IMG/VR virus record: IMGVR_UViG_3300005827_000042 | Location: 1-64,000 of that record | Direction: 5' to 3' (one strand) | Origin: a virus | Length of the DNA stretch: 64,000 nt | Position numbers and translations under genes: made by a program | Notes under the pieces: generated by a model | Seen by the model: only the letters and a program-made list of their open reading frames with translations | Database searches by the model: none | Told to the model about the DNA's origin: nothing | Part shown: in pieces, positions 25,221 through 53,310 of the stretch | How the letters are laid out: each line of letters begins with the position of its first letter | Numbering within the stretch: position 1 is the first letter of the stretch

Positions 25221-25836
25221 GTATAATTCCTTGAGGCATCATAGATTTTGGTATCCGTACTCTTCGTATCTTTGGAGCATTCTCGTGCATGAAGTACGGG
25301 CGGGGGAGTGGGTTGAATTTAGACTGCTTAGTTGTAGAGTTATACGGGTAAGCAACCTCACTCATACCCCACAAAAACTCTCTATTCAACTGCTCGTCTG
25401 TAAGAACTTCTTGAATATGGGCAAGGGCAGTGTCTACACTTAGATTTCCTATATACTCCAAACTCCACCCATATTCTTTAGCCAGCAAGTGTGCCCAATA
25501 ATTCCAATTCCTACCTGAATACTCCCACCCAACTTCTTTGTCTTTCATCTTACTATTACCAGAGGTTAGAAGTGGGATCTTGGTTGGTGAGTTTAGCTCC
25601 CTGGCAATTGAGAAGAGAAATATTGTTACTTTCCATGGCAATCTCTGTAAGACGATATTAGAAATATGAAGGGCAGTCGATATGTACTGCATTACAAGTT
25701 TCGGGAACTCTGTAATGTTTCCACCATCGACTGCCCTGCTTATATTTGCTACTACGTCTTCCAGTACCGCCCACGAATAAAACTTTACTTTCTTAGGTCG
25801 TCTTATCCGTAAATAGGCACTAATAAGACTGAGCAA
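25168..25836 (-). CDS. tail assembly chaperone-position ORF
   Basis: 222 aa. TTG start preceded by an AGAGG RBS. Lies between the major tail protein and the tape measure. Confidence 0.5.
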   Translation of the reverse strand: MLSLISAYLRIRRPKKVKFYSWAVLEDVVANISRAVDGGNITEFPKLVMQYISTALHISNIVLQRLPWKVTIFLFSIARELNSPTKIPLLTSGNSKMKDKEVGWEYSGRNWNYWAHLLAKEYGWSLEYIGNLSVDTALAHIQEVLTDEQLNREFLWGMSEVAYPYNSTTKQSKFNPLPRPYFMHENAPKIRRVRIPKSMMPQGIIHDTGGMEKFIQETAQAS

Positions 25837-25847
25837 GGCTACCTCTT

Positions 25848-26477
25848 TTACGGAATGGCACCCAGATCAGAACGAATGAACACTCCGAACATCTGAGGAG
25901 ACGGTTTGGTGGTGTCAGCATATGCACGCACCTTCAAACCTGTAAGCTGCCACGGCTCACCGGACTTCATTTCCAGCGTCCAAGCATCAACGAACTTGGC
26001 CTTGTGCAGATGGATGACCAGATAGTCGCCAGTCTCTTCATCATACACCTTAGGCATATACACCATGAAGTGCTGAGTGTTGTTGATCGGGCCGATGCCA
26101 ACCTTCTCTTCACCAGAACCGACAGTGGGGGTAGACAGGTTCATCAGTTTAGCCGCCACAGCCAGCGGGAAGATACTGGAGATGGTAAGCCCCAGTTCCA
26201 CATAATCACGCCGCTGGATAGTGTCCTTGATACCGACAGTATCGCAACGCACGTCATTCATAGTCATGCCCTCAGTCAGCGACACGTCCAGAACACATCC
26301 AAGCAGATTGACCGGATACTGAGTCGTGCCAGTCATATTCCAGTAGTACCCGTCAGCATCAGGATTATAAAGCGGAGCCGCACGGTAATCCTGAATGTAA
26401 AGATAAGGAGCACCTTCGATATAAAGGTCTTCCTGAGAAACAATGTTACCAATAGCACTTCCAGTAACTAAGGACAT
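25848..26477 (-). CDS. major tail protein
   Basis: 209 aa. Position upstream of the chaperones and TMP, GGAGG-like RBS, no sheath gene present. Confidence 0.6.
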   Translation of the reverse strand: MSLVTGSAIGNIVSQEDLYIEGAPYLYIQDYRAAPLYNPDADGYYWNMTGTTQYPVNLLGCVLDVSLTEGMTMNDVRCDTVGIKDTIQRRDYVELGLTISSIFPLAVAAKLMNLSTPTVGSGEEKVGIGPINNTQHFMVYMPKVYDEETGDYLVIHLHKAKFVDAWTLEMKSGEPWQLTGLKVRAYADTTKPSPQMFGVFIRSDLGAIP

Positions 26478-26485
26478 AGTACCTC

Positions 26486-26779
26486 CTAACCGCGCTCAAA
26501 CAAAAAGTTTTCGATCTTACGGTTTCCGCAGCACGCAGTTTCACCAACATGCTTTGTCAACAGATCATCAATGTCTCTTACATCTACTTGCACTTTTGTT
26601 CCCGCGCCATCCCATTTGTAATGTTTACCGGAAACGGCTCCGACCATCCTAACGGTTGCAGGGAACTTGCACACTACCAATTCACTCTGTTCAACAGAAG
26701 TATAAGGCAACCCAGATCCAATATCAAGGTCGTCATCTTTTACTTCACTTGCATGGGAAATGACAGTTCGCCTCGCCAT
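26486..26779 (-). CDS. hypothetical structural-module protein
   Basis: 97-aa ORF between the tail-completion and major tail genes. Confidence 0.45.
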   Translation of the reverse strand: MARRTVISHASEVKDDDLDIGSGLPYTSVEQSELVVCKFPATVRMVGAVSGKHYKWDGAGTKVQVDVRDIDDLLTKHVGETACCGNRKIENFLFERG

Positions 26780-27147
26780 ACGCCGTCCTCCTGTACATAC
26801 ATGGCACCAAGCTGAAGTGCCTCAATTCTTGAAGTAGTCCTAATCCCTCCATTAGTAACATGGTTTCGATCAAACAGATCGAATAGCATTCCACAGATAG
26901 TATTCACAGACAGACTGGATGCCAGATCACCAAACACATAAATGTGAACATCAATATCGAAGATATCACAATCAGGGGTGTGTCGTTTGAAATTATCAAC
27001 TCGAACACGGATATTGGGATACACAAACTTGTCCCCTACCCATTCCAATTCTCGTACCTCATTTACACTACCCAACTTAGCTAGTATGGGTGCGTCTTGT
27101 TTGATCTTACTGATGATACTCGCCTGTATACTGATTAGTGATGTCAT
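26740..27147 (-). CDS. tail completion/terminator-like protein
   Basis: 135 aa. Position and size resemble the DUF3168-like tail completion family. Weak, position-based call. Confidence 0.45.
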   Translation of the reverse strand: MTSLISIQASIISKIKQDAPILAKLGSVNEVRELEWVGDKFVYPNIRVRVDNFKRHTPDCDIFDIDVHIYVFGDLASSLSVNTICGMLFDLFDRNHVTNGGIRTTSRIEALQLGAMYVQEDGVWRGELSFPMQVK

Positions 27148-27680
27148 TTATTCACACCTCCAGGGCGTGAGAATACCGCACGAATTTTTAGCTTCAAAGA
27201 CTTCTGTGCATCTTCAGATAGGTCTTCCTTGATCTTCGGAAGGGATTGGGCAAACGCCTCTCGTATGTAACCCTTACCACTATTGTATGCCCTAATACCT
27301 GGGTGCAAAACCTGAGGAAGGTATGCCTTTTTACCGAGCTTTTCCCAGTAAAATACTAACATTGTTTTAGGTGCTTTGGGAGTAATTCGTATAAATCCAT
27401 AACCAGTCTGACGCTTTGATTTGAAATTACGAGTAGCATGTAACCCAGACCCGTACTCTTGTGCACGTAAATCCTCGGATAAACCTTTACGTGGAATCAA
27501 ACGGGCCACAATAGATACCCCATTTGGGGATGAGGTGTCTACTGTGAAATTATCGCTCGTTATGAATGGGGCTAGATGTTGCGGAGCAAGTGCCTTCACC
27601 TTGTTATAAATCCGCAACCTGGCCCCTTCCAGAAACTCGTCTGATAATACTGACTTATCCGTACTGGTAGGCGTGGGCAT
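27144..27680 (-). CDS. neck protein (HK97 gp10-like position)
   Basis: 178 aa, in the connector series, overlapping junctions. Confidence 0.45.
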   Translation of the reverse strand: MPTPTSTDKSVLSDEFLEGARLRIYNKVKALAPQHLAPFITSDNFTVDTSSPNGVSIVARLIPRKGLSEDLRAQEYGSGLHATRNFKSKRQTGYGFIRITPKAPKTMLVFYWEKLGKKAYLPQVLHPGIRAYNSGKGYIREAFAQSLPKIKEDLSEDAQKSLKLKIRAVFSRPGGVNK

Positions 27681-28038
27681 CTTCGTACCTCTTCAGTACA
27701 AGCAGTGTCTGACTCCGTGGATCGTTGGGTCGAAGACTCGAATGCCTGACACTGATAATCCGGAACTTCTTATTGTAGTAGGGGCTGTCCAGAGGGTAAG
27801 TAACTACAATCTCATCGTTCTCATCTATGCCAACTGCTCTGGAACTTATCGTAGTCTCAAACAGTTTTGTGGTTTCAACCCCCTGCTCCAGCAGGGCAGT
27901 AGTGGGCGACAACGGCTCTATACGAACAAGCATTCCAGTATAGAGCACAGTTCCAGACGGCTGACTTCCACCAATCATGTCATCAGACGGGTAAGAGAAT
28001 CTAAATACACTTGCAATTTGATTGTGTCCAGCGGGCAT
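27655..28038 (-). CDS. head-tail adaptor/head closure protein
   Basis: 127 aa, in the connector series. Position-based call. Confidence 0.45.
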   Translation of the reverse strand: MPAGHNQIASVFRFSYPSDDMIGGSQPSGTVLYTGMLVRIEPLSPTTALLEQGVETTKLFETTISSRAVGIDENDEIVVTYPLDSPYYNKKFRIISVRHSSLRPNDPRSQTLLVLKRYEDAHAYQYG

Positions 28039-28040
28039 AA

Positions 28041-28733
28041 TTATCCTACCATCAATGACTTTCTGGCCTTTTTGATAGAGCCATCCAGAAGTTTTGCAAT
28101 CCAGGCGGATTTGGCTGAATTACCAAACACAGTATTCTTCCAAGACTTGCGCTTCTCTGAATATCGAAGATGAGTAAACTCAGTAACTCCAGCATCTCCG
28201 GTAGTTTCATTCGCAGGGGTTGGCTGAATCTCATTCAATATAAGCTGAGCAGCGTTTACCAGGGCCAGTGAGATTCCTGGCATAGCTGACGTTCCAGTAG
28301 ACAGGCCAGCCTCATACACGTATTCAATCGTGAATGGACGACCAGAAACAAGGTACACACATCCATAAGCTTTGGCAAAGTTCTCAAGGTACAGATATCC
28401 GTAGGTGTCGTTACGGATCATACCAATCGAATTGGAAATCTCTTCCAGAGTGTAGACAACAGTTCCTTCTTCGTCCAACATTCTCACTGCCAGGAGTTTG
28501 GTTACATACCCATAATCCGTTGGGATAATCTTACCAAGTTCCGGACTATAGTAAGCACTGCCTGTAACTATTGTGGGAATAAGCAACGTGCCAATATATG
28601 ACGACACCTGCTGCTCTGCCATTTGATAGCAAGCCTGACGAATCTGGGGAGTGGATTCATATACCACTCCCCCATAATCCACAAACATCTGGTCATTCAA
28701 AATCTGTGGCGCACTATACGGATACACTACCAT
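28041..28733 (-). CDS. head-tail connector/head completion protein
   Basis: 230 aa. First gene after the glycosylation island; position-based call. Confidence 0.4.
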   Translation of the reverse strand: MVVYPYSAPQILNDQMFVDYGGVVYESTPQIRQACYQMAEQQVSSYIGTLLIPTIVTGSAYYSPELGKIIPTDYGYVTKLLAVRMLDEEGTVVYTLEEISNSIGMIRNDTYGYLYLENFAKAYGCVYLVSGRPFTIEYVYEAGLSTGTSAMPGISLALVNAAQLILNEIQPTPANETTGDAGVTEFTHLRYSEKRKSWKNTVFGNSAKSAWIAKLLDGSIKKARKSLMVG

Positions 28734-28737
28734 GTGT

Positions 28738-29523
28738 TTACCTCATTATCCAATCAGTCCACACCAATCTACCACGATTATTGGACAAGAATATTTGTCG
28801 ATTGCGGTCTAACATCGGGGGTTGCTTTTTATGGGAGAACGTGGCCCCCACAAAATGGTATGCAATAGCATTACAGTCTACCCATATTTTATATCCTAGA
28901 CCAGTGATTTGCAATGCTAGCTCCACGTCCTCATAGTATCCAGCACCGTAGGCAGTGTTGAATCCACGCACCCGCTCGAACAAAGCACGTCGCACCATGA
29001 ACACAGCACCGGTAACTGAGAATACTTCCCTTGAAATGCAGCAACGTGGGTTGTTTGCTGACCAACCGATAAGTGGGTGAATTATGTTACCGTCCAAGTC
29101 CACAGCATGTCCAATATGCTGAACCTTACCTGCCGGACCACTAGTAGAGCCATCAGCAAAAAGCAACTTCAGCCCACACATCCCTATCTTCTTATCCTGC
29201 ATAGTAGATACGAGAGATTCTATAGCCCCATCTGTAAGAACTATGTCATCCGAAACAAAGAGAACCAGCGGTGACTTGCCCATACGAATGGCGGCATTAG
29301 CCCCGCCAGGAAATCCTGTGTTGTTACTCGATCTGCGGTGCCGCGTTATTATGGGGCGGCGGAATAAGTCAGCCGCAGCTTGACGATCATCGGATGGGCT
29401 ACCGTTATCAAAGACATACACATTACACGGTGTATTCTTTGTGACCTGTTCAACCGAATCCAAACACTTCTCCAGAAGGTCAAACCTACCAGCGGTGAGA
29501 ATGCAAATATCTATCTTATCCAT
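28738..29523 (-). CDS. family 2 (GT-A) glycosyltransferase
   Basis: ICILTAGRFDLLEKCLDSV..VYVFDNGSPSDD N-terminal GT2 signature. DDIV (DxD-like). 8-nt overlap with the upstream GT. Confidence 0.85.
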   Translation of the reverse strand: MDKIDICILTAGRFDLLEKCLDSVEQVTKNTPCNVYVFDNGSPSDDRQAAADLFRRPIITRHRRSSNNTGFPGGANAAIRMGKSPLVLFVSDDIVLTDGAIESLVSTMQDKKIGMCGLKLLFADGSTSGPAGKVQHIGHAVDLDGNIIHPLIGWSANNPRCCISREVFSVTGAVFMVRRALFERVRGFNTAYGAGYYEDVELALQITGLGYKIWVDCNAIAYHFVGATFSHKKQPPMLDRNRQIFLSNNRGRLVWTDWIMR

Positions 29524-30631
29524 GTGACAACTCCATCAGAGCATTATTGAACTGTTCGATACACACGCCCCAGTTCCTCGATGCGATGTACTCTCTGGTA
29601 TCATACGCAAGAGCACCAAACAACGCTTCTTCCAGTAAGGCTGCACCTTCTGACACCGAAATAAAGTCGCGCTTAGAATTACCCCAAACATCTATGTAGG
29701 AGTATTCCGGATTGACCAGCCACCCACGATTAGTGAGAAGTTCAGTAATGGCCCCAGTCTTTGTACCGACGCAAGGTACACCAACTGCCATTGCCTCAAG
29801 GAGTGGAATGCCCAGTCCTTCAGCCTTGCTCGGAAGTAGAAAGGCATCAGCGGCCACATAAAGATCCCGCAACTCTTCTGTACTCAGCCCACGCCCGAAC
29901 TCGATGTACTGATCCTGAATGCCCATCATCTTGGCAAGTTCCTGTAACTTCCATCCAGGCGGATTATTGGGACGAGTAACTACTACGTACTTGAAGCAGG
30001 TATCTGGATTATCTCTACACAGCTTAGCAACAATAGCCATACCTGCCCACAGATTCTTCCTCTCCTGGTTATCTGCAACGGTGAGCACTATCTTATCCGT
30101 TGAGGCGAATCCAAGACGTTTACGCTTCTCATCATGTTCTTTCTTATCTGTGCGTCGCCAAACGTTGGTGTCAATCCCAACCTGCAAGTGGCCCACGTTG
30201 GTCAGCCCAACCTTACGCGCCTCCTGTTCTCCCAATTCTGAGATGAAGAACACCTTATCATACTCAGCCAGAATCATAGCCCATGACATCATCAAGGGTC
30301 CATTTTCCATCGGGGTGATGGCAATGTATTTAGCGACTGGTTTTTTCATTGTGCCAAATATGCGATCCAGATTAGGAATATCCATAGCACACACAATGAA
30401 ATCTGGTTTCCACAGAATGCCGAGATTGTTAATTGCCGCTTGAGCATATGAAGCGTTTTCAACTGGAAGGATGGGGAACTTTTCCCAGTGCTCCTCTCCA
30501 CGATTGGAAAATGCTATCATGAATACTTCATGCCCAAGATCAACCAGCCCGTTGCACAGGGGCTTACAGATGGTAGCATAGCCAGACACGGCCCCAGCCG
30601 GATAGTCAGTAATTACCAAAATTCTACTCAT
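29516..30631 (-). CDS. GT4-type (GT-B) glycosyltransferase
   Basis: 371 aa. C-terminal PSKAEGLGIPLLEAMAVGVPCVGTKTGAITELL (EX7E motif). Confidence 0.85.
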   Translation of the reverse strand: MSRILVITDYPAGAVSGYATICKPLCNGLVDLGHEVFMIAFSNRGEEHWEKFPILPVENASYAQAAINNLGILWKPDFIVCAMDIPNLDRIFGTMKKPVAKYIAITPMENGPLMMSWAMILAEYDKVFFISELGEQEARKVGLTNVGHLQVGIDTNVWRRTDKKEHDEKRKRLGFASTDKIVLTVADNQERKNLWAGMAIVAKLCRDNPDTCFKYVVVTRPNNPPGWKLQELAKMMGIQDQYIEFGRGLSTEELRDLYVAADAFLLPSKAEGLGIPLLEAMAVGVPCVGTKTGAITELLTNRGWLVNPEYSYIDVWGNSKRDFISVSEGAALLEEALFGALAYDTREYIASRNWGVCIEQFNNALMELSHG

Positions 30632-31658
30632 GAATTACCTCGTCCCATTTCTGAATAGCTTTCCGAATACTGAATCGTTCTTTAGCCTGTTCCTGTACTG
30701 CACTTCCACATCCAAGACAGGTTTCCTGATTCTTCAAACAGTGGATTGTCTTGTCCACAAATTCTCGTATTTCTTTATCTCCAATAGGAAAACCAATCTT
30801 CGTTCCGAGGTTGGTCGTAGCAAGTGCCCCACAGGTTGACGTGATTGGATAAGCTCCCGCGTAACAACACTCAGCAGTAGAAATACAGAATAATTCCTCA
30901 TAAGTACATGGGTACAACTGAATGGCACTTTGAATCTGTAACTCTATCAGTTTAGGGCGTGGAACCAGAGCATGATAAGTCACATTCGGAAACGACGTGA
31001 ATTTTATCTTGTGTTTGAGACTAATATTTGCACTAAGTCCAGCATCCCACAGTCGATAGTCAGAAGTGATGTGCAACTTCGCTTCCGGAACTTCTTCAGT
31101 TACTGGACCCCAAATACGGGCAAGCTCATTGATCCCACGGTCAGGGACAGAACAGAACAACACCTGCATTGGGTCTTTCTCCACACTCACCCCAGCGTAA
31201 TCCCACTCGCGCACGGGAATGTCGATTACAACACTGTTTTCTATGTTGTACCGAGTGCGGAAATATTCCTGGTGAAATGGAGAAATTGTAACTACCTTAT
31301 CGACCCTACGAGCGAGTTCATAGAAGTTACCAACGGTAAATTGGTCACATGACCAAAAAATCTTTCTACCACACTTGGCAGCAACAGTGCGCGGATTCTC
31401 AGCCCTGAAAATAATCAACACATCACGCCACTCTTCTGGGTCAAATTCAGTTAGGTTCTTTTGTTCAAAACAACTTGCCCCACGCTCACGCGGGTTGTTA
31501 TAAAGAGTGACATCATGTCCAGCTTCTTTCCATGCACGACACATAGTCAGTAAGTACAACTCACTGCCACCAACCCCAAGCTGTACCCCATCTCCGTAAA
31601 TAGACTTCTCTGTAACCCCAAGCGGGCTTCCGTGATGTGCGACTATGTGCAGCTTCAT
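30624..31658 (-). CDS. GT-B fold glycosyltransferase
   Basis: N-terminal GVGGSELYLLTMCRAWKEAGHDVTLY. C-terminal YPCTYEELFCISTAECCYAGAYPITS (EX7E-like). Confidence 0.7.
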   Translation of the reverse strand: MKLHIVAHHGSPLGVTEKSIYGDGVQLGVGGSELYLLTMCRAWKEAGHDVTLYNNPRERGASCFEQKNLTEFDPEEWRDVLIIFRAENPRTVAAKCGRKIFWSCDQFTVGNFYELARRVDKVVTISPFHQEYFRTRYNIENSVVIDIPVREWDYAGVSVEKDPMQVLFCSVPDRGINELARIWGPVTEEVPEAKLHITSDYRLWDAGLSANISLKHKIKFTSFPNVTYHALVPRPKLIELQIQSAIQLYPCTYEELFCISTAECCYAGAYPITSTCGALATTNLGTKIGFPIGDKEIREFVDKTIHCLKNQETCLGCGSAVQEQAKERFSIRKAIQKWDEVIHE

Positions 31659-32968
31659 TTCTTCCTCTTGTATTCTGCAATGAAATCTGAAAAAACCGAA
31701 ACGGTGTAATCAATCATTTCATCAGTAATATTCTGATGACACCCAATCCAGAAAGTATCTGTGGTTACAACATCCGCGTTATACAGATGGGTAGCTTTAC
31801 GATGCGGGGTAGTTCGGAAGGCCGGTTGGCGTAAAAGATTCCCACCAAACAGCATTCGAGTACCTATCTTATGGTCCTCAAGGTATCGGACTAACGTATT
31901 CCGATCAAACGGCAGGGCCTTCTTCAGCGTGAGCGCAAATCCGAACCAGGACGGCTCTGACTTCTTTGTAGCCAGCGGTAGGACAAAGTAGTCCTCAAAC
32001 TGGCACAATCCTTCAAGCAGCCTTGCGTGATTATGTTTACGCCGAGCAACGAAATCAGGAAGGCGACTCAACTGACTAATACCAAGCGCTGCCTGTAGGT
32101 CAGTGATTTTCATGTTATACCCAAGGCGGGAATAGGTATACTTGTGGTCGTACCCTGCTGGCAAGCCAGCTATAGCCGACTGAGAGAATCTGCGGCCACA
32201 AGTATTATCCTTTCCAGTATCACACCAGCAAGCCCTACCCCAGCCACGAAGACTCTCCACAACCTTCGCAATCATCGGTGAGTCTGTGATAACTGCCCCA
32301 CCCTCCCCCATCGTGATCTGGTGGGCCGGATAAAATGACAGGGTGGACATGTCCTCATAGAATGCAGGGGACGACCCATCAAACAAAGATCCAAGAGCGT
32401 CGCAGGAATCTCCGATCAGGAACAGGTTGTTGTCGTCCGCCACCTTCTTCATACCATCTACGTCATATGGGTTGCCTAGAGTGTGAGGGATGAAAATGGC
32501 CTTTGTCTTGTCAGAAACCGCCGCGTCTACACTATCAGGCGAGACATTGTATGTGGGGAAATCCACGTCACAGAGTACGGGGATAAGCCCGTTTTGTATG
32601 ATTCCAGACAAAGTAGTAGGGAATCCAACTGCGGCTGTGATAACCTCATCTCCAGGCTTGAGCGCCCGACTACCAAATTCCGGCTGACATACGGCCGAAA
32701 TAGCCAGCAGATTAGCAGAGCTACCAGAATTGGCAGGAATAGCAAACCGAGCATTAGGAGTAAACGCCCTACGTAGGTCTTGAGAAAATGCGTTCGCATA
32801 TTTACCTTCCGTGAACCACCCATCTAATGCCGCACCAACTACAGATAAAATGTCATCCTCTGTAATTTCTGCACCGGAGACGGGGATATAGTTTTCACCG
32901 GCCACAAACTCCGGTTTCTTTGGCATACCTGAATTTATTCTGTCAAGTATCTCTGCTTTAGTTATCAT
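31655..32968 (-). CDS. PLP/PMP-dependent sugar 3-dehydrase, E1/RfbH/AscC-like (DegT/DnrJ/EryC1 fold)
   Basis: 437 aa. SFYPAHQITMGEGG has His216 where aminotransferases carry the PLP Lys. Cys189, 247, 249 and 257 give C-X57-C-X1-C-X7-C. Also RALKPGDEVIT, GYDHKYTYSRLGYN and PSWFGF blocks. Confidence 0.8.
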   Translation of the reverse strand: MITKAEILDRINSGMPKKPEFVAGENYIPVSGAEITEDDILSVVGAALDGWFTEGKYANAFSQDLRRAFTPNARFAIPANSGSSANLLAISAVCQPEFGSRALKPGDEVITAAVGFPTTLSGIIQNGLIPVLCDVDFPTYNVSPDSVDAAVSDKTKAIFIPHTLGNPYDVDGMKKVADDNNLFLIGDSCDALGSLFDGSSPAFYEDMSTLSFYPAHQITMGEGGAVITDSPMIAKVVESLRGWGRACWCDTGKDNTCGRRFSQSAIAGLPAGYDHKYTYSRLGYNMKITDLQAALGISQLSRLPDFVARRKHNHARLLEGLCQFEDYFVLPLATKKSEPSWFGFALTLKKALPFDRNTLVRYLEDHKIGTRMLFGGNLLRQPAFRTTPHRKATHLYNADVVTTDTFWIGCHQNITDEMIDYTVSVFSDFIAEYKRKK

Positions 32969-33815
32969 TTAAGAACTTCTCCAATGCCTCATGGTAGTTG
33001 TAGTTGGGTGGGATGCTAGGGGCAAGGCAGGAGTTCAGTGGGCGGTTTGCAATACCTCTAACGTTGTTTACCGTCTTGGTAGGAATAATACTATCTCCAC
33101 ATAATCCAAACTTCTCCGCAATATCCATAGCAAATTGATATTTAGACACACACTCACTGCCGGATAGGTGGATTACACCACGAAGTCCAGCATCCATAAT
33201 ATGAACGGACGAAATTGCCAGATCGTCAGAATAAATCGGACTTACAAGCTGATCCTGCGGGGACTCAATACGCTTCCCAAGGGCAAGCTTGTCAATAATC
33301 TGATACGCATAGTTCTTTCTGGCCCATTCCCTTCCAAACACTGCCACTGTACGAATTACAGTACCACCGGCAGTAAGAACCTCACGTTCAGCGTTCATCT
33401 TCTGGATACCGTAGGTGTTTACAGGCATCGGACGATCGTATATGGTATATGGAGTAGATGAGCTACCGTCAAATACATAAGACGTAGAGTAGAAGATCAC
33501 ATTGGAATGTAGGCCCTGGGCAAGGCGAACTATGACCTTCACTGCTTCCACGTTAGTGCGATACGATTCAGAATTTATCTCACAATCATTCACGTGAGCG
33601 TTACCGCCAGCCAGGAACACAACATTGGGGCGCACTCGATTCATCACATCGACTATGGACTTGATACTATTCAAATCCATATACTCATACTCCCTACCCA
33701 TTGCTTGTGAGTAATATGTACCAACAGCATTGATACCTATGTGGGAGTTGAGTTGGTTTAGGATCGCTGAACCAACCAACCCAGATGCACCAACTACAAG
33801 CACACGTTTATCCAT
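32958..33815 (-). CDS. RmlD-like NAD(P)H-dependent 4-ketoreductase (extended SDR)
   Basis: Start moved to ATG 33815 (ATGGATAA overlap with the upstream stop). VLVVGASGLVGSA Rossmann motif, STSYVFDG, YGIQKMNAE (YxxxK). Confidence 0.75.
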   Translation of the reverse strand: MDKRVLVVGASGLVGSAILNQLNSHIGINAVGTYYSQAMGREYEYMDLNSIKSIVDVMNRVRPNVVFLAGGNAHVNDCEINSESYRTNVEAVKVIVRLAQGLHSNVIFYSTSYVFDGSSSTPYTIYDRPMPVNTYGIQKMNAEREVLTAGGTVIRTVAVFGREWARKNYAYQIIDKLALGKRIESPQDQLVSPIYSDDLAISSVHIMDAGLRGVIHLSGSECVSKYQFAMDIAEKFGLCGDSIIPTKTVNNVRGIANRPLNSCLAPSIPPNYNYHEALEKFLNDN

Positions 33816-34236
33816 GCTGAATCTCCCAATCATATGGTACAGAATTGTAGGGTATGCGGTATATCTGTCCATAAGGCTCACTAGCCTGAACCAGTATCAT
33901 CGATTCCATGGACAATCCCTTGAATCCTGCATACACCCCAGGTGGGATATGAACACTCAACATATTCTTATCGCTAAGGTAGATTTCTTCTATAGTACCT
34001 GAGGTCTTACCAGGACGCGCATCCCATAGAACCAATTTCACCTTACCAGACACACAGGTGAAATGTATCTCCTTCGTCTCATACCCATGCCACGCTTTGA
34101 TAGCGCCGTAGGCTACCGTAGTCATGTACACGTCTTTTACATCAAAGATCGGGGTGGCGACCTTCAATACACACCCACGCTCATCGGGTATAACAGTGCA
34201 CAAACTAACAATTACTCCAGATATGTCAACGGTCAT
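33808..34236 (-). CDS. RmlC-like cupin sugar epimerase/isomerase
   Basis: Start at ATG 34236 (GAGGA RBS). DERG.., AWHGYETKEIHFTCVSGKVKLVLWDARPG.., HIPPGVYAGF match the RmlC-type pattern. Confidence 0.65.
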   Translation of the reverse strand: MTVDISGVIVSLCTVIPDERGCVLKVATPIFDVKDVYMTTVAYGAIKAWHGYETKEIHFTCVSGKVKLVLWDARPGKTSGTIEEIYLSDKNMLSVHIPPGVYAGFKGLSMESMILVQASEPYGQIYRIPYNSVPYDWEIQHG

Positions 34237-34414
34237 TTTTATCCTCATCCACAAACTCAACTATATGTATTGCTGTGTGGTGTGTGCTCTTCTCGCAGTA
34301 ATTGATTCTCTGGTACTCACAGCCACAATATGGACAAGTAGTATTCTGTGGCATCTCTCTATAGATAAGCCCACACTTGTCGCACACATAGGCAGTGGCA
34401 GTGAATGGGGCCAC
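34226..34414 (-). CDS. small Cys-rich protein with rubredoxin-like knuckles
   Basis: 62 aa. CDKCGLIY..(x12)..CPYCGC, 6 Cys in total. Coupled to the flanking genes. Confidence 0.5.
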   Translation of the reverse strand: MAPFTATAYVCDKCGLIYREMPQNTTCPYCGCEYQRINYCEKSTHHTAIHIVEFVDEDKNDR

Positions 34415-34753
34415 CTAACTACTCCCGTCCAGGTGTTGGTTATACCCAGCGTGGTGTAAGCATACAAGCAGTGCCCCCATATTTGCTGAAGAGTCCTTGG
34501 CATAGGCATCATAATTCACTACGCCAGCCGGAGAGCCGCAGGTACACCACAGAGTCCAACCACGACTATTGAACACGTGCTTGAACATAAAGTGGTTATC
34601 GTATGGGGCACAGTTCACCAATCCGATTTCCATGTTGACAAATATATTTTTACTGCGGTTTACTCTAGTACCATCTTCCTCAAGCAGGACGGTATTCAAG
34701 TCACCGTGATGGCGAACTACCTTAATCTGTTTGTTACCAAAAATATTATCCAT
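34415..34753 (-). CDS. hypothetical Cys/His-rich protein
   Basis: 112 aa. WCTCGS (C70, C72) ... VCLHHAGY (C98, H100/101). Arrangement is only loosely Rieske-like. Confidence 0.5.
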   Translation of the reverse strand: MDNIFGNKQIKVVRHHGDLNTVLLEEDGTRVNRSKNIFVNMEIGLVNCAPYDNHFMFKHVFNSRGWTLWCTCGSPAGVVNYDAYAKDSSANMGALLVCLHHAGYNQHLDGSS

Positions 34754-35771
34754 TCATTCCTACCATCTTGAGCAAATCACACACACGCTGATCGTATGAA
34801 TGTACAGGGTACCCATCACTGCTAATTTCCCACACACCATCTTTTGCCTGACGACCAATACTGGCAATTGCCTGAGGGGTCTTGAGAAGCATCTCTACCT
34901 TGTACACAGCGTCTTCCACAGTATCAAACCCAACATAATCCACACCATCAGTGAAGAACAGTCCCATATCTGGAACATTGTTCACTACCGGGCACATACC
35001 CATTGCCATCAGTTCAAACACACGAGCATTCAAATCAAGCTCAGACGAGTAATTGATACCAATGGATGCCTGATTTTGCAGTGTGCGGTACTCATCAAAC
35101 ACAGGACCGTTTTCGTAGATGACAGAGATTCCCTTGGCACGAAGAGCCTGAACCAGCTTGGTACGGTGTGGGTATGCCATCCCAATACATGCGCAATCAC
35201 TGGTTTTTTCTTCTTGCACTGGGTAGTGTACAGTCGGATCGAACGCATAGGGCAGGAAATAGTCCCCAGGCATCTTGTAGTGGTTGTGCATATTAATGAA
35301 CATATCTGAAATTGACCGAGCGTGTTGGTAGTGCTGATTCAGACAGTGGGCATCGGTACCGATGGTAATTACCGGGCAGCTAACCCCAGGACGGGAAACC
35401 CAGTTACACATGGCATCTACAGCAATAACTAAATCTGGCTTCCAATCCCCCAACTGGAAAGCCACAGATGCAAACGGCACCAACTTATTGCAAGCCTCAA
35501 AACCCCCAGTAACGATATCCGGAGATACCGCATACTTGCTCAGAAGATTCATTCCACCACCCCACGGAATAAATGTACCAGTATAGGGGCCGGCCGTCTT
35601 CAAATCAATGTCATCACGTCGAAGGAACGCCCTACGCCAATAGGACGCCATCGACAGCGGGTACCACATCGAAAGAAGTAAAACTCGCTTCTTACTCTTT
35701 GATCCCCCACTTTTCAGCGAAGAGTTGCTTGTTTCTGTGAGTACGTTCGAGCCGTTCTGCTGTGTATCCAT
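34746..35771 (-). CDS. CgeB-like (Glyco_trans_1_2-type) GT-B glycosyltransferase
   Basis: Start set to ATG 35771 (GGAGG RBS, 5-nt spacer). C-terminal NARVFELMAMGMCPVVNNVPDMGLFFTDGVDYVGF pattern. Confidence 0.6.
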   Translation of the reverse strand: MDTQQNGSNVLTETSNSSLKSGGSKSKKRVLLLSMWYPLSMASYWRRAFLRRDDIDLKTAGPYTGTFIPWGGGMNLLSKYAVSPDIVTGGFEACNKLVPFASVAFQLGDWKPDLVIAVDAMCNWVSRPGVSCPVITIGTDAHCLNQHYQHARSISDMFINMHNHYKMPGDYFLPYAFDPTVHYPVQEEKTSDCACIGMAYPHRTKLVQALRAKGISVIYENGPVFDEYRTLQNQASIGINYSSELDLNARVFELMAMGMCPVVNNVPDMGLFFTDGVDYVGFDTVEDAVYKVEMLLKTPQAIASIGRQAKDGVWEISSDGYPVHSYDQRVCDLLKMVGMNG

Positions 35772-36372
35772 ATGTTCCTCCACCTACGTGTGCAATTGTA
35801 TTTTCAGGTAATACAGATAGCCGGTATCCCTTCTTCAGGGCGGTTGTGCTTATATCCACATCTTCAAAATCAGACGGGCTGTATCTGGTATCAAACCCAC
35901 CGGATTCTTCCCAAAACTTATTCGTTGCAATCAAAATATGACCATTCATATATGGAAATATTGTGTTACCAAACCGGTTCCATCCCACATCATGAGAGTG
36001 GCACTGTGCACCAAGCAAGATATATTCATCTTCTTCAAATCTACCTACAACCAAATCTACAAATTTCGGGTTCAGAATTCTAATGTCATTTGTGAGTAGG
36101 GCCACAACATCTCCAGTACACTGAGAGATGGCAAAATTCATTCCACCAATAAACCCAGAATTTTCCTTTGTCTTTACAACTCTAACGGGTAAGGATTTGT
36201 CCGCCACAAATAAAGCAAGGCCACGAGAAACTTGAGGGTCGGTGCTGCAATTATCTACTAAAACAATTTCATGGACGTGAGAACAGTAAGCACTCACGTC
36301 CATGAGAAGTTTACTGGTGTATGACCAGCCATTGTAAACCAGTATCGCTATGGAAATCTTTGGGCTATTCAT
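35692..36372 (-). CDS. family 2 (GT-A) glycosyltransferase
   Basis: Start set to ATG 36372 (MNSPKISIAILVYNGW..). VLVDNCSTD and ENSGFIGGMN motifs. Confidence 0.8.
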   Translation of the reverse strand: MNSPKISIAILVYNGWSYTSKLLMDVSAYCSHVHEIVLVDNCSTDPQVSRGLALFVADKSLPVRVVKTKENSGFIGGMNFAISQCTGDVVALLTNDIRILNPKFVDLVVGRFEEDEYILLGAQCHSHDVGWNRFGNTIFPYMNGHILIATNKFWEESGGFDTRYSPSDFEDVDISTTALKKGYRLSVLPENTIAHVGGGTYGYTAERLERTHRNKQLFAEKWGIKE

Positions 36373-36383
36373 ACACCGTGTAA
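36371..36383. promoter_or_regulatory. 12/13 copy of the palindrome TTACAC[C/G]GTGTAA abutting the GT2 start codon
   Basis: Plus strand ATACACCGTGTAA. Lies between the stop at 36386 and the ATG at 36372. Confidence 0.5.
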
Positions 36384-36385
36384 TC

Positions 36386-36751
36386 CTACTTTGTAACCGG
36401 CTGTGCAGGGGTGACTGGGGTGGGAAGGTTCTTACCAGCGTTGAGCACGTCCTTGATGTAGGCATCCACAATCTCAGTCAGTTTATCCACATCATAGGAC
36501 AGGCCAAGGCGTTCACACTCGTGAAGCATTACCCCAAGAACGAAGGCAAGCTTCTCTTTGCCGCGCCCACTGCCGAGGTAGAGCGTTTCAGCGACTAGGC
36601 AAACTGAATGCACAATAGAAACCAAATACCCTTCCTTGTCTTTCGGAAGTGAGCCGGTACTGGTCAGCTTGTAGATCGCATACATAATACTGGAGCCAAC
36701 AAGAACTCCGATACCGAACACCGTAAAAATCTGACTATTGAGTTCCAACAC
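36386..36751 (-). CDS. membrane-anchored hypothetical protein
   Basis: 121 aa. GTG start with GGAG RBS. N-terminal TM helix IFTVFGIGVLVGSSIMYAIY. Confidence 0.5.
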   Translation of the reverse strand: MLELNSQIFTVFGIGVLVGSSIMYAIYKLTSTGSLPKDKEGYLVSIVHSVCLVAETLYLGSGRGKEKLAFVLGVMLHECERLGLSYDVDKLTEIVDAYIKDVLNAGKNLPTPVTPAQPVTK

Positions 36752-36752: not shown

Positions 36753-36989
36753 CTAATCTCCTTTTGGGTGCTGTGACCCTGTTTCGTAAATAAGAATATC
36801 CAGTTCAGACGCCAGTCGATACTTCAATCTGGTTTGACCGCAGCAGATGTTGGCACGTAAGGCAAGAATTACAGGCAAGGAACTTTCTTCCACCCACCCA
36901 AGAGACACGTTATGCTTAGGGGACGTGTACTCACTGGGATTACTGTTCCAATGCCTGATAGCCACTAAACCAACACTATTTTTTACCAT
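36753..36989 (-). CDS. hypothetical protein
   Basis: 78 aa. AGGAG RBS. First gene after the capsid terminator. Confidence 0.5.
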   Translation of the reverse strand: MVKNSVGLVAIRHWNSNPSEYTSPKHNVSLGWVEESSLPVILALRANICCGQTRLKYRLASELDILIYETGSQHPKGD

Positions 36990-37050
36990 TATGTCACTCT
37001 CCTAACACGAGTAATATACTACAACCTTCCCAATCATAACATTAATGTAT

Positions 37051-37091
37051 GATTAAAATAAATAGCCCCGTAAGTATCTACGAGGCTATTT
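37051..37091 (-). terminator. rho-independent terminator after the major capsid gene
   Basis: AAATAGCC..CGTA-loop-TACG..GGCTATTT hairpin (37060-37091), followed on the - strand by ATTTTAAT. Confidence 0.65.
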
Positions 37092-37108
37092 ATTGGGCTT
37101 GTCAAGTT

Positions 37109-38275
37109 TTACACAATGCGAGCGCAGGTCGTGGAGAGAGAGATCGACGCACGCTTATTATACACCGACTGAGCGCACTTGGCCTTGATAACAAGAGCCG
37201 TCTTCGCCCAAATCTGGAAGCTAATAGCGGTGCAGCCGGGGGCCAGATCACGGAAAGCCAGGGGGATCTGAGTAATCTTGTAGACCAGCGGTTCACCATT
37301 GTGAGTCATGCGCAGCGGATACAGAGCAGACTGCACAGCGCCTCCACCAACGTTGGTGATCGGGAAGTTCGCATCGGCCACAACCATCAGGCGACCAACA
37401 CCCGTGTAAACCTCACCAGCGAAGTTGAAGCCGGGGATAATGCGATCCTGCTTGGTGGCGTTGATAACCTGACTACCCTGGAAACCGAGCTGGAAGTAAC
37501 TGGACAGCATGGCCTGGATCATCTGCGGGTGGCCGAAGATGTGGGTAGGTTTGGCACAACCTTCAGCGAGGAAGGCATCGAATTCATTGGCCGAGAACGT
37601 TCCACTAATGCCGGATACCGCATTAGCATGGGCACCATTGGCCGCAGTAACCTGGGTGACAATACCATCGAAGTGCAGGGCGTTCACGCTATCGTCGCCG
37701 TTGACCAGCAGGTTGTCCCAGCCGTTCATGACCAGAGTAGCGCCAAGCTGCATTTCCTTGGCCTTCAGATCAGCGATCATACCCAGATAACCGGCACCAG
37801 CATCAGAGCCACCGGGCATACCTTCACCAGCCACGAAACCGGGGGCCAGTTTGGTGATACCATACCCAGCGCTCATCGAAGCGACGCTGTGCATAATATC
37901 AGAGATGCCGAGGGATTTCTTCGCGCCAATGTTCTTCAAATCGACGTAGGAATTGTCCCCATCGTGGGTATACTCTTCCGGACAGCCGTAGTCGGCAAAG
38001 CCGATGTACGAGCCGCTGACGGTGAAGTTCAGTTCGTTCAGTTCACGCCAGGTGTAGGTTTTCAGCCCGGTCATGATTTCAGGAATGGCCCGCCAGGTGT
38101 TGAGTTCCTCGCACATCGTAACCAGTTCCGTGGTATCCAACGGATTCGGGAACTGAGCAGCGAAGTCAGCGGGGAGTCCAGCATTCGCAATAACGGGATC
38201 GGCGGCGCGGCTAACAAAAGCCTGCTCATTAGGGGCATCAGCGCCAAGGTTCAGTACAACTTCAGCATTAGGCAT
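37109..38275 (-). CDS. major capsid protein (HK97-fold type)
   Basis: 388 aa. Follows the protease/scaffold gene, has strong codon bias with higher GC, and is followed by a terminator. Assignment by composition and position. Confidence 0.8.
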   Translation of the reverse strand: MPNAEVVLNLGADAPNEQAFVSRAADPVIANAGLPADFAAQFPNPLDTTELVTMCEELNTWRAIPEIMTGLKTYTWRELNELNFTVSGSYIGFADYGCPEEYTHDGDNSYVDLKNIGAKKSLGISDIMHSVASMSAGYGITKLAPGFVAGEGMPGGSDAGAGYLGMIADLKAKEMQLGATLVMNGWDNLLVNGDDSVNALHFDGIVTQVTAANGAHANAVSGISGTFSANEFDAFLAEGCAKPTHIFGHPQMIQAMLSSYFQLGFQGSQVINATKQDRIIPGFNFAGEVYTGVGRLMVVADANFPITNVGGGAVQSALYPLRMTHNGEPLVYKITQIPLAFRDLAPGCTAISFQIWAKTALVIKAKCAQSVYNKRASISLSTTCARIV

Positions 38276-38334
38276 GGTATATCTCCTTGATTGATCTTCG
38301 CGCCGCCAATTGGCTTAACCGCTGTTTGAATGGT

Positions 38335-53282: not shown

Positions 53283-53310
53283 CAAAGAACACATTATTGA
53301 AGGAGGTGAT

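Follow-up and report, generated by a model that had tools for sequence, protein, structure and literature searches.

A clade-wide glycosylation module in the late structural operon of an uncultivated tailed phage

The analysed stretch of DNA, here called the window, comprises 64,000 nucleotides of the IMG/VR virus record IMGVR_UViG_3300005827_000042 and harbours at positions 28738 to 36751 eleven closely spaced minus-strand genes, as derived from the list of open reading frames and recomputed junctions. This 8-kb block is the phage's own version of a clade-wide glycosylation module fixed in the late structural operon, and not a foreign island. Pfam, NCBIfam and PHROG profiles assign five of the gene products to glycosyltransferases (two GT2, one CgeB-like and two GT4), while the others are an E1/RfbH enzyme, an RmlC-like cupin, an RmlD-like reductase, a holin-like protein with one transmembrane segment and two small cysteine-rich proteins. 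The major capsid gene borders the module on one side and neck/tail genes on the other. The best reading of this arrangement, to which we would give about an even chance of being correct, is that a virion protein is glycosylated late and in the cytoplasm, the glycan containing a 3,6-dideoxyhexose. The sequences show the gene content, the enzyme families, the signature residues of E1, the packing, the terminator-like hairpin and the conservation and co-divergence across the clade, whereas we infer when the genes are expressed, which sugar is made and, more than anything else, what accepts it.

Position, packing and conservation of the module

The open reading frames and coordinates proposed in an earlier note on this DNA, made from the letters alone, are borne out, and so are the tight packing on one strand and the location between capsid and neck/tail genes upon recomputation of the junctions. 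With the most plausible starts, every junction from the gene p78 (36753-36989, minus strand) to the tape-measure gene lies between -80 and +13 nt on a single strand. The largest overlap, 80 nt at 35692-35771 shared by the genes for the CgeB-like transferase and GT2a, holds provided that translation starts at the ATG at 35771, which is preceded at a distance of 5 nt by a GGAGG ribosome-binding site. A scan found no significant excess of promoter- or terminator-like sites inside the module.

The upstream boundary is the gene for the 388-aa major capsid protein (37109-38275, minus strand). This assignment, already made in the earlier note, is supported by the place of the gene in the order, behind those for TerL, portal and a 437-aa protein, and by phrog_212 ('major head protein'), which matches the window protein with E 8.5e-4 and 13 of 20 members of the capsid family with a best E of 4.4e-8. 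The protein has 1537 metagenomic homologues; a PDB profile search gave nothing and the AF2 model reaches a pLDDT of only 35. Directly after the capsid stop codon stands a terminator-like hairpin (37057-37094, minus strand; 17-bp stem, ATAC loop, U-rich 3' side), which was not caught by a simple terminator scan but detected by folding: region 36980-37120 of the minus strand folds with -42.5 kcal/mol (z -4.78), with none of 200 shuffles as stable. Most relatives have a comparable hairpin behind the capsid gene. Of the co-transcription with the structural genes proposed previously, the contiguity with the neck/tail genes thus holds, while the hairpin breaks simple continuity with the capsid gene. 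Given this strong hairpin, the module would be transcribed with the neck/tail genes, probably at a reduced level.

On the downstream side, six small minus-strand genes (25848-28733; 230, 127, 178, 135, 97 and 209 aa) are taken, by synteny, as head-tail connector/neck proteins and tail tube. Their order is shared with the related loci L048 and L053, and a homologue of the 230-aa connector c230 follows the last transferase gene in L022, L032, L043, L048 and L102. The connector genes proposed below 28733 are thus assigned by synteny only; Pfam and PHROG searches gave no match for them. Chaperone-like open reading frames and then the 1007-aa tape measure follow with tight junctions.

The block had been described as an inserted island, with the question of whether the capsid-to-connector junction is normally uninterrupted in related phages. 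Among the informative contigs of relatives, with a capsid identity of 50-83%, approximately 41 of 42 have the same module at this junction. They comprise 32 loci that continue for at least 6 kb beyond the capsid gene, of which 31 are positive, and 10 contigs found via the portal. The conserved backbone reads MCP-p78-GT2-CgeB-C112-...-GT4-GT4-GT2-connector, with five to eight transferases per module. Median identities to the window are 34% for GT2a, 41% for the CgeB-like transferase, 42% for GT4a, 41% for GT4b and 30% for GT2b, compared with 44% for TerL, 47% for portal and 29% for c230. Owing to this similar divergence the transferases behave as vertically inherited core genes and not as recent acquisitions from a host; together with the shared slot, it marks the module as an ancestral component of the operon throughout the clade. 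As the GC content of the module (0.46-0.47) also matches the flanks, the description as an inserted island is not upheld.

In relatives, the slot also takes up other genes between the capsid gene and the module, namely for endonucleases (HNH and GIY-YIG), a GH25 endolysin, holin-like proteins and an Acb2/Tad1-like protein. Because such accessory genes are accommodated there, the position is suggestive, not decisive, for a virion target, and the positional argument of the earlier note is weaker than assumed.

Enzymes and small proteins of the module

The five transferase assignments of the earlier note, two GT2, two GT-B and one CgeB-like, are upheld by Pfam and PHROG profile searches. GT2a (35692-36372, minus strand) is a GT-A family-2 enzyme of the conserved core (Glycos_transf_2, E 1.3e-16) with a homologue in 24 of the 31 loci; it has no transmembrane segment, and DVD at residue 171 fits the D-x-D pattern. 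The CgeB-like transferase (Glyco_trans_1_2; 34746-35771, minus strand; PF13524, E 1.5e-13), equally part of the core, is found in 27 of the 31 loci and has zero matches among 50,697 GenBank phage records. The core GT-B enzyme GT4a (30624-31658, minus strand) is assigned more weakly, with Glyco_transf_4 at E 3.5e-7 and 30.9 bits against a cutoff of 28.5 and an additional weak Glycos_transf_1 match, although it also matches phrog_2170 and displays EX7E at residue 255; its homologue is present in 17 of the 31 loci, many of which end before this position. GT4b (29516-30631, minus strand), the second GT-B enzyme of the core, matches Glycos_transf_1 (E 4.6e-19), phrog_2170 (E 3.7e-26) and the Pfam model GT4-conflict (34.4 bits). 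The last module gene encodes GT2b (28738-29523, minus strand), another GT-A family-2 enzyme (Glycos_transf_2, E 1.3e-13); like all enzymes of the module, it has no transmembrane segment.

The dideoxysugar branch proposed earlier is upheld and strengthened by its E1/RfbH (31655-32968, minus strand), a member of the DegT family in Pfam that scores 569.8 bits against the NCBIfam RfbH cutoff of 423 and matches PDB 3bcx/3bb8 with E 1e-139. The protein retains in the alignment the His of 'AHH' and Cys residues aligned to C193, C251, C253 and C261. It shares 50-55% identity with RfbH proteins of bacteria, and the E1 proteins of the clade form their own group with 56-66% identity. Judged by its sequence, it is predicted to be a genuine PMP- and [2Fe-2S]-dependent CDP-6-deoxy-4-hexulose 3-dehydrase catalysing the committed step to 3,6-dideoxyhexoses. 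Its partners are an RmlD-like short-chain, nucleotide-4-keto-sugar reductase (32958-33815, minus strand, the start at 33815 being a revision that is most likely correct; RmlD_sub_bind E 2.2e-41; TIGR01214 at 152 bits, under the cutoff of 224) and an RmlC-like cupin, a nucleotide-sugar epimerase or ketoisomerase (33808-34236, minus strand; dTDP_sugar_isom E 1.5e-8, FdtA E 2.9e-7 and phrog_8784, with no NCBIfam equivalog). The branch is incomplete, as cytidylyltransferase, dehydratase and E3 reductase were not found in the window. In close relatives there is a glucose-1-phosphate cytidylyltransferase, matching PDB 1tzf with E 3e-48, as well as an enzyme resembling SDR dehydratases, and the closest relative of the window carries the cytidylyltransferase and dehydratase that the window is without (compare L052). 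This nucleotide-sugar sub-block is the sole part of the module that varies among relatives and behaves like a swappable cassette.

Both small cysteine-rich genes and the gene for a membrane protein noticed earlier are present, although for the second of the former 34226-34414 is a better reading than the 83-aa open reading frame 34261-34512. The product of this gene, Zn62 (minus strand, 62 aa), is zinc-ribbon-like with CxxC...CxxC, has no family match and no homologue in related loci, and is thus unique to the phage of the window; its gene abuts C112 with a 0-nt gap, overlaps the next gene by 11 nt and stands where the closest relative has the cytidylyltransferase and dehydratase. C112 (34415-34753, minus strand; 112 aa) is beta-rich, clade-specific and always located after the CgeB-like transferase, with a homologue in 25 of the 31 loci. 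Its conserved CxCG...C...H...H pattern suggests that it probably binds metal; Foldseek found nothing similar to its AF2 model (pLDDT 81.6) in PDB or BFVD, and Pfam, PHROG and NCBIfam gave no match. To the earlier layout is to be added the conserved p78, encoded between the capsid gene and the block described there; this protein of 78 aa has an invariant CCG motif and no Pfam or PHROG match. Throughout the clade its gene stands next to that of the capsid, in each of the 31 loci that extend for 6 kb or more past the latter. Both p78 and C112 are orphans, conserved within the module and found nowhere else. TM121 (36386-36751, minus strand; 121 aa), with one N-terminal transmembrane segment at residues 7-25 (Kyte-Doolittle), is holin-like or a membrane anchor; its holin matches are weak (Phage_holin_6_1 E 6.8e-4, under the cutoff; phrog_6918 E 4e-4; Holin_LLH), and its position in relatives is taken by small proteins with one to three transmembrane segments.

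Candidate acceptors of the glycan

Under glycosylation of the virion, read-through of the leaky post-capsid terminator late in infection would lead to expression of the module with the neck and tail genes. The RmlC-like, RmlD-like and E1 enzymes would then turn CDP-4-keto-6-deoxyhexose into an activated ascarylose-type 3,6-dideoxyhexose. As the cytidylyltransferase and 4,6-dehydratase of close relatives are absent, the starting sugar would have to be supplied by the host, and as no E3 is encoded, the E1 electrons would come from a generic host reductase. The five soluble transferases (in the order GT2, CgeB-like, GT4, GT4, GT2), possibly assisted by p78 and C112, would assemble the oligosaccharide in the cytoplasm directly on a structural protein, most likely the capsid, giving particles with a glycan coat of a composition that varies between relatives. 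Counting against the capsid, its conserved, Cys-containing C-terminus presents no obvious flexible glycosylation tail as reported for mycobacteriophages. The gaps in the sugar branch and the dissimilarity in sequence between the module's transferases and those of Corndog also weigh against this reading.

Transfer of the sugars to hydroxymethylated bases before or during packaging is very improbable. Phage transferase clusters that place mono- to trisaccharides on 5hmC do exist, some near structural genes (bioRxiv 10.1101/2023.12.21.572611), and GT4b matches the GT4-conflict model. No thymidylate-synthase-like hydroxymethylase, 5mYOX/TET or C5 DNA methyltransferase gene was found among the window's open reading frames of at least 150 aa, covering 64 kb of the 67.9-kb contig, which argues against DNA as acceptor, and the methyltransferases in the modules of relatives are small-molecule types (Methyltransf_11/23/25). 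We know of no precedent for an E1-dependent dideoxysugar branch in DNA modification.

Remodelling of the host envelope is the main alternative, though still unlikely. The transferases and dideoxysugar enzymes would act on undecaprenyl-linked or other envelope precursors, with host flippase and ligase used to change O-antigen, capsule or teichoic acid, which could block superinfection or keep progeny from re-adsorbing to debris. O-antigens are the classic home of 3,6-dideoxyhexoses, and the resemblance of E1 to bacterial RfbH, the membrane protein TM121 at the head of the module and the polytopic membrane proteins without family assignment inside the modules of L024, L028 and L040 fit such a role. 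Soluble GT2 and GT4 enzymes also make lipid-linked O-antigen units at the inner membrane face, so that the absence of transmembrane segments is compatible with an envelope target. Transferase and sugar clusters adjacent to tail-fibre genes in T4-like cyanophages and pelagiphages are usually read in this way (PMC7029224; S-H68). However, the transferase core is universal and syntenic and diverges with the structural genes, unlike patchy host-derived auxiliary genes. A Pfam and transmembrane scan of the window found no initiating phosphoglycosyltransferase, flippase, polymerase or exporter, and neither a ligase nor a Gtr-type membrane transferase is present there; no integrase or lysogeny genes occur among the open reading frames scanned, and late expression in a lytic cycle would leave little time for surface conversion to count.

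Improbable, too, although less so than DNA modification, is glycosylation of another late non-virion product, be it a small molecule, a factor for lysis or assembly, or p78 or C112 as soluble glyco-carriers. Such a product would agree with the conservation of these two orphans inside the module, with the neighbourhood of a holin-like protein and, in relatives, an endolysin, and with the very broad acceptor range of GT2 and GT4 enzymes; it leaves five to eight transferases in every clade member hard to explain, and biosynthetic genes for a small-molecule aglycone were not found.

Comparison with known glycosylation systems

In the Bacillus spore crust and exosporium (CgeB, SpsA-L), a protein shell formed by self-assembly receives its sugars inside the mother-cell cytoplasm from a CgeB-family transferase, GT2 enzymes and a deoxysugar branch; this is a cellular differentiation system linked to the window only by membership in Pfam family PF13524. 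Giant viruses glycosylate structural proteins of their own within the cytoplasm and without recourse to the host secretory machinery, as for the major capsid protein of chlorovirus PBCV-1 and the mimivirus fibrils, with virus-encoded transferases and nucleotide-sugar enzymes (rhamnose, viosamine and similar). Both enzyme classes are virus-encoded in the window module as well, whereas the hosts of giant viruses are eukaryotic, their capsid architecture is unrelated and the genes lie dispersed or belong to other clusters.

The CDP-3,6-dideoxyhexose pathway of Yersinia and Salmonella (Asc/Ddh/Rfb) proceeds through Ep, Eod, E1 and E3 to an epimerase/reductase. The window E1 is an RfbH of full length that scores above the cutoff and has the characteristic His and Fe-S cysteines, and its RmlC-like and RmlD-like partners correspond to AscE and AscF; E3 and the first two enzymes are lacking, and the setting is a phage structural operon instead of an O-antigen locus with Wzx/Wzy. 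Cyanophages and pelagiphages (S-H68; PMC7029224) similarly carry a multi-transferase cluster adjoining tail-fibre/baseplate genes, in S-H68 with cytidylyltransferase, 4,6-dehydratase, 3,5-epimerase, reductases and an E1/ColD-like 3-dehydratase. The E1-like protein of S-H68 is just 34% identical to that of the window, and these T4-like phages are myoviruses with genomes of 80-200 kb, the region of which is hypervariable, patchy and usually read as modifying host O-chains, in contrast to the conserved syntenic core described here.

The closest precedent is provided by mycobacteriophages. Virion glycosylation is attributed to Che8, Corndog and Myrna in papers citing Freeman et al. 2023, Cell Host Microbe (PMC11600133, PMC11256854, PMC12619734), and in cluster O phages a methyltransferase gene is followed by three tandem glycosyltransferase genes, with capsid and tail tube modified (PMC11600133, citing Freeman 2023). 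Corndog gp35-38, described there as an O-methyltransferase and three tandem glycosyltransferases (PMC11600133), sit in the head-gene operon between portal and protease; in Pfam, gp35 matches TylF, gp36 nothing, and gp37 and gp38 match transferases weakly. In line with the earlier note, which knew of no such cassette, none was found in any cultured or GenBank phage, yet the Corndog precedent is closer than the one named there. Shared are phage-encoded transferases, lying in the structural operon in Corndog as here, which in these mycobacteriophages are interpreted as decorating capsid and tail-tube subunits in the cytoplasm and may do likewise in the window phage, and methyltransferases, which also occur in modules of the window's relatives. 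Distinct are the location, before the protease in Corndog and after the capsid gene here, and the transferases themselves, for which no similarity in sequence to the enzymes of Corndog could be detected. Moreover, two or three transferases in mycobacteriophages stand against five to eight in the present clade, where the module is universal across a large uncultivated group and, in the window, includes its own nucleotide-sugar branch with E1 and the orphans p78 and C112. If glycosylation of the virion is the correct reading, a large uncultivated clade of tailed phages coats its own particles with sugar, which has so far been shown only for a few mycobacterial phages.

A glycosylation module within the late operon

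The window holds most of a 67.9-kb metagenomic phage contig (JGI) whose late operon runs on the minus strand from ~45 kb down to 13 kb in the HK97-type order, with terminase large subunit (TerL), portal, major capsid protein (MCP), neck, tail tube, chaperones and tape measure on one strand. TerL (41974-43488, minus) is recognized by Pfam Terminase_6N and Terminase_3 and the portal (40170-41903, minus) by phrog_11117 (E 2e-7), while a 437-aa protein is encoded between portal and MCP on the same strand. The MCP (37109-38275, minus) matches phrog_212 with E 8.5e-4, as do 13 of the 20 members of its family (best E 4.4e-8); a profile search against PDB sequences gave no match, and an AF2 model built from a 20-sequence alignment reached a pLDDT of 35. 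Six MCP cysteines (C55, C98, C240, C348, C367 and C384) are invariant among the 20 aligned clade members, and cysteine-rich structural proteins of this kind may provide disulfide or metal cross-links in the virion. A 413-aa ORF on the plus strand (37049-38290) lies antisense to the entire capsid gene, with the local GC raised to 0.52 across both. Below the module follow six small minus-strand genes that match no family, then a pair of chaperone-like ORFs and, where the tape-measure gene is expected, a 1007-aa ORF, all minus; the neck and tail-tube identities of the genes below the module are assigned by synteny only. The 222-aa and 95-aa ORFs ahead of the tape-measure gene (24933-25836) overlap by 53 nt, which fits the usual tail-assembly-chaperone pair with a programmed frameshift. 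The plus-strand arms carry the replication genes, for UvrD-like and DnaB-like helicases, PolA, UDG-like and RecA-like proteins, and one of these arms bears a single AUA-decoding tRNA-Ile(TAT) (53210-53283).

The eleven genes that the earlier note had listed between capsid and connector genes are real, and its enzyme assignments are upheld by Pfam, NCBIfam and PHROG. All on the minus strand, they encode TM121 (36386-36751), a 121-aa protein with one transmembrane (TM) segment and weak holin-family matches, the GT2 glycosyltransferase GT2a (35692-36372), a CgeB-like transferase of the Glyco_trans_1_2 family (34746-35771), the Cys-rich protein C112 (34415-34753), the 62-aa CxxC...CxxC ORF Zn62 (34226-34414), an RmlC/FdtA-type cupin (33808-34236), an RmlD-type reductase (32958-33815), a 437-aa DegT-family protein (31655-32968), the GT4 transferases GT4a (30624-31658) and GT4b (29516-30631), and the second GT2 enzyme GT2b (28738-29523). 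Both of the small Cys-rich genes proposed earlier are present, but the second is better read as the 62-aa ORF than as the overlapping 83-aa ORF. No TM segment is predicted in any module enzyme, TM121 alone having one; as no endolysin was identified in the window, this holin-like protein stands without an obvious partner nearby.

All junctions lie between -80 and +13 nt, beginning with the 78-aa gene next to the capsid gene and continuing to the tape measure, and the 80-nt overlap to which attention had been drawn is backed by a GGAGG ribosome-binding site preceding the ATG at 35771. The transferase genes are embedded within the virion structure and assembly operon. Directly past the capsid stop codon lies a hairpin (37057-37094) with a 17-bp stem and a U-rich 3' side; the 141-nt stretch containing it folds with -42.5 kcal/mol (z -4.78), and most relatives possess a hairpin of -15 to -30 kcal/mol of different sequence at the same place. 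T7-like phages have a leaky terminator after the capsid gene, and by analogy the hairpin suggests high capsid expression with attenuated read-through to the module and the neck and tail genes. A simple promoter/terminator scan, which overlooked this hairpin, showed no significant excess and no convincing internal sites. As internal promoters and terminators were not found and essential neck and tail genes follow gaplessly, we infer that the module almost certainly belongs to the late structural transcript.

Conservation and variation across an uncultivated clade

Among GenBank phages neither an 18-kb megablast nor tblastn with the MCP recovered any relative; the best TerL match is only 24% identical and the CgeB-like transferase has no match. 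A look-up of the exact MCP sequence gave no record either, although a cluster representative identical to it is found on a 67,942-bp JGI contig. The 1537 capsid homologues are all metagenomic, and a scan of GTDB genomes yielded just two MAG contigs, both short, with the labels Anaerolineae and Woesearchaeota. These labels, a Hodarchaeales label on one capsid homologue and the scattered closest cellular relatives of the DegT-family protein (Ilumatobacteraceae, Methanoregula) were considered as host clues and treated as binning noise. Endolysin and holin-like genes in relatives suggest that the host is a bacterium.

Gene contexts of relatives were drawn from IMG/VR, Logan, ENA and GTDB MAGs and annotated with HMMs built from the window proteins and Pfam-typed relatives. 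The earlier description of the module as an inserted island is not borne out by this comparison, as its GC content (0.46-0.47) equals that of the flanks and it occupies the same slot across relatives. Transferase or sugar genes follow the capsid gene in 31 of the 32 loci that extend at least 6 kb beyond it, the sole exception, L049, being a composite carrying a second phage head module, and 10 further independent contigs found via the portal display the same layout. The backbone consists of MCP, an occasional DUF5659 protein, the clade-specific small protein p78 (36753-36989 in the window), optionally a small TM protein and/or an RmlD-like protein, GT2a, the CgeB-like transferase and C112, followed by a variable block and then by GT4a, GT4b, GT2b, four small genes named by aa length (c230, c127, c178 and c135) and the tail tube. 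The CCG motif of p78 is invariant, and C112 shows a CxCG...C...H pattern. The minimal module (L043/L102) spans 5.7 kb and has no sugar-nucleotide genes, and that of L053, with its seven or eight transferases, extends over ~13 kb.

Median identities to the window proteins amount to 34% for GT2a, 41% for the CgeB-like transferase, 33% for C112, 42% for GT4a, 41% for GT4b and 30% for GT2b, compared with 44% for TerL, 47% for the portal, 57% for the MCP and 29% for c230 among the structural genes; the core transferases have thus diverged at much the same pace as the structural genes. What makes up the variable block are the nucleotide-sugar genes, found in different combinations between relatives and drawn from a cytidylyltransferase, an SDR dehydratase, an RmlC-like cupin, RmlD-like reductases, RfbH-type 3-dehydrases or DegT aminotransferases of the ordinary kind, SAM methyltransferases and additional GT2s.

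The space between capsid gene and module is an accessory hot-spot in relatives, with homing endonucleases, a GH25 endolysin, holin-like proteins and an Acb2/Tad1-like protein. The latter, at L007 12786-13028, is a Pfam Acb2_Tad1_hairpin match (an anti-CBASS/anti-Thoeris sponge family) between capsid gene and module. Even between close relatives the GH25 endolysin changes its site, following the capsid gene directly in L003 (11477-12838) but lying upstream of the terminases in L052 (1235-2677). In L037/L038 and L035, the capsid gene is separated from p78 by ~8 kb that hold large uncharacterized ORFs of up to 1572 aa. Six portal-anchored loci (L096, L101, L108, L112, L115 and L124) show no capsid gene within ~9 kb downstream of the portal, which implies large portal-capsid insertions on contigs of ~100 kb. 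Proteins with 5-7 TM segments and no Pfam match occur inside the module at L024 7356-8234, L028 14437-15255 and L040 4722-5441, and the module of L039, the locus that diverges most, encodes an ABC-transporter permease (BPD_transp_1, 19550-21134); such polytopic proteins in a few relatives may point to a membrane-linked step in certain lineages. L049/L031, considered as island-less relatives, proved uninformative: from 11333 onward a glycosyl hydrolase follows the capsid gene and then a second, unrelated terminase/SPP1-type portal/MuF/capsid set, which makes them assembly chimeras or else a composite element.

A predicted 3,6-dideoxyhexose branch

The earlier guess of a dideoxysugar branch was right, because the DegT-family protein (31655-32968) is a true E1/RfbH, the 3-dehydrase of the CDP-3,6-dideoxyhexose pathway. 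It scores 569.8 bits against NCBIfam RfbH (cutoff 423) and matches the Yersinia E1 structures 3bcx and 3bb8 with E 1e-139. In the alignment to 3bcx, 'AHQ' stands opposite 'AHH', the active-site His replacing the PLP lysine, and cysteines are kept opposite C193, C251, C253 and C261, following the residue numbering and the C-X57-C-X1-C-X7-C [2Fe-2S] motif reported for E1 (Agnihotri et al. 2004). The module E1 is thus the enzyme that commits the pathway to 3,6-dideoxyhexoses. Within the clade, the contigs' E1 proteins group among themselves with 56-66% identity, bacterial RfbH proteins being lower at ~50-55%.

An E3-type reductase, the flavin/[2Fe-2S], ferredoxin-reductase-type partner of E1, was not found in the module or among window ORFs of at least 150 aa, nor in the module of any relative examined. 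SpnQ is reported to work with a generic host reductase, and a reductase of this sort would have to serve the phage E1 in place of E3. Three candidate partners were considered and set aside. C112 as a Rieske- or ferredoxin-like electron donor accompanies the transferase core even where E1 is missing (L043, L048), and its confident AF2 model (pLDDT 81.6) has no match in PDB or BFVD; a rubredoxin-like role for Zn62, an ORF unique to the window phage, is pure speculation; and the 813-aa 'E1' of L013 (17251-19692), a potential E1-E3 fusion, is really an E1 split by a PI-PkoII-like homing-endonuclease intein near residue 247, beside the Fe-S cysteines. An intein in a sugar-pathway enzyme is unusual; an Intein_splicing match (Pfam) is also found in the 812-aa TerL of L003 (3723-6161) and L004 (1472-3910).

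Glucose-1-phosphate cytidylyltransferase and CDP-glucose 4,6-dehydratase are absent from the window and present in L052, L003 and L053. The L052 cytidylyltransferase matches 1tzf with E 3e-48, and the SDR protein of the relatives matches generic dehydratases/epimerases, among them the CDP-glucose 4,6-dehydratase 1wvg (E 9e-25); an RmlC-like cupin and an RmlD-like reductase are present in the window, both scoring under the equivalog cutoffs, as candidates for the terminal epimerase and 4-reductase (AscE/AscF, RfbS, Abe and similar) by which the final sugar is fixed. With the first two enzymes, the set in relatives would equal the CDP-ascarylose pathway (Ep, Eod, E1, 5-epimerase and 4-reductase) minus E3. 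In L052, the closest long relative (capsid 78% identical), the order is C112, cytidylyltransferase, dehydratase, RmlC, RmlD, E1, methyltransferase, GT4a, GT4b and GT2b; the window has the same order without cytidylyltransferase, dehydratase and methyltransferase, and the zinc-ribbon ORF Zn62 occupies the place of the missing genes. The host of the window phage must supply CDP-4-keto-6-deoxyhexose and electrons; otherwise its sugar branch is decaying.

Possible targets and comparison with known systems

The universality and fixed synteny of the module, the co-divergence of its transferases with structural genes, its exclusively soluble enzymes and the clade-specific orphans p78 and C112 within it favour a virion-intrinsic function. 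So does the missing lipid-carrier, flippase, polymerase or Gtr-type component, which at the same time speaks against remodelling of the host envelope. On the other hand, soluble GT2 and GT4 enzymes serve lipid-linked O-antigen assembly too; this, the accessory hot-spot between capsid and module, the unclassified polytopic membrane proteins in some relatives and the reading of analogous cyanophage clusters as host-surface modification weaken the case. Weighing these arguments, we regard glycosylation of the virion by the module as about evenly balanced between true and false. Host-envelope remodelling appears rather unlikely, and glycosylation of another late acceptor improbable.

Compared with Wzx/Wzy- or ABC-dependent O-antigen and capsule loci, the window module lacks, by Pfam, the initiating phosphoglycosyltransferase, flippase/exporter, polymerase and ligase, and none of its proteins has more than one TM segment. 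Neither does it match a Gtr serotype cassette, with GtrA flippase, membrane-anchored GtrB and GtrC beside integrase/attP: the module GT2 proteins have no TM segments and show a weak match to the GtrB-like phrog_841 (E 6.8e-4), and no integrase is present among the scanned window ORFs. Glycosylation of DNA is very improbable. Glycan hypermodification of DNA is recognized by a co-encoded 5hmC/5hmU-generating enzyme (bioRxiv 10.1101/2023.12.21.572611), and no ThyS-like hydroxymethylase, 5mYOX or C5-methyltransferase was found among window ORFs of at least 150 aa (Pfam E<=1e-3), several of which match nothing at all.

Combining virion glycosylation with the pattern of inheritance gives a picture that is possible, if on the whole doubtful, of a clade-wide O-antigen-like virion coat. 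All members of a large and widespread siphovirus-like clade, none of them cultivated (>1,500 capsid homologues in metagenomes), would be glycan-coated; five to eight vertically inherited transferases, aided by the two clade-specific orphan proteins, would assemble the glycan in the cytoplasm, and 'phage serotypes' would arise as nucleotide-sugar cassettes (dideoxyhexose, aminosugar, rhamnose-type, methylation) are exchanged.

Phage-encoded glycosylation machinery tied to structural genes is already known. New are the architecture, in which five conserved transferases and two orphan proteins separate the capsid gene from the connector genes, the E1-dependent dideoxysugar branch in a phage structural operon, the place of the module in the vertically inherited core of a large clade without cultured representative, and a sugar chemistry that varies modularly between relatives. 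Glycosylated phage particles have, to our knowledge, been demonstrated in a few actinobacteriophages only. If virion glycosylation holds true, it would be a core, ancient structural trait of a major environmental lineage, beyond a mycobacteriophage curiosity, with a glycan chemistry varying by strain. It would then bear on particle resistance to proteases, grazers, immune recognition and aggregation, on phage engineering such as glycan shielding, and on the annotation of 'auxiliary metabolic' sugar genes in viromes, usually labelled host LPS modification. For enzymology, the module would offer a compact, soluble, self-contained toolkit of transferases and E1 dehydrase, apparently without dedicated E3. 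Even with a host-envelope target, a transferase set co-diverging with structural genes would be an unusual evolutionary pattern.

In T4-like cyanophages, analogous clusters, including an E1-like enzyme 34% identical, adjoin tail-fibre genes and have been interpreted as host-surface modification (PMC7029224). With mycobacteriophage-type virion glycosylation the module shares phage-encoded transferases, five in the window by Pfam. Cluster O phages modify capsid and tail tube with an O-methyltransferase gene and three tandem glycosyltransferase genes (PMC11600133), and cluster F1 phages have their glycosylation genes near the right genome end (PMC11256854). No match to the module proteins was found by phmmer for Corndog gp35-38 at E<=10; by Pfam, gp35 is a TylF methyltransferase, gp36 has no assignment, and gp37 and gp38 are weak Glyco_tranf_2_2 and Glyco_transf_25 matches, respectively. 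In Corndog, portal gp34 and protease gp39 flank gp35-38, and the window transferases are likewise situated inside the structural operon. Mycobacteriophage virion glycosylation is the closest demonstrated analogue of the module.
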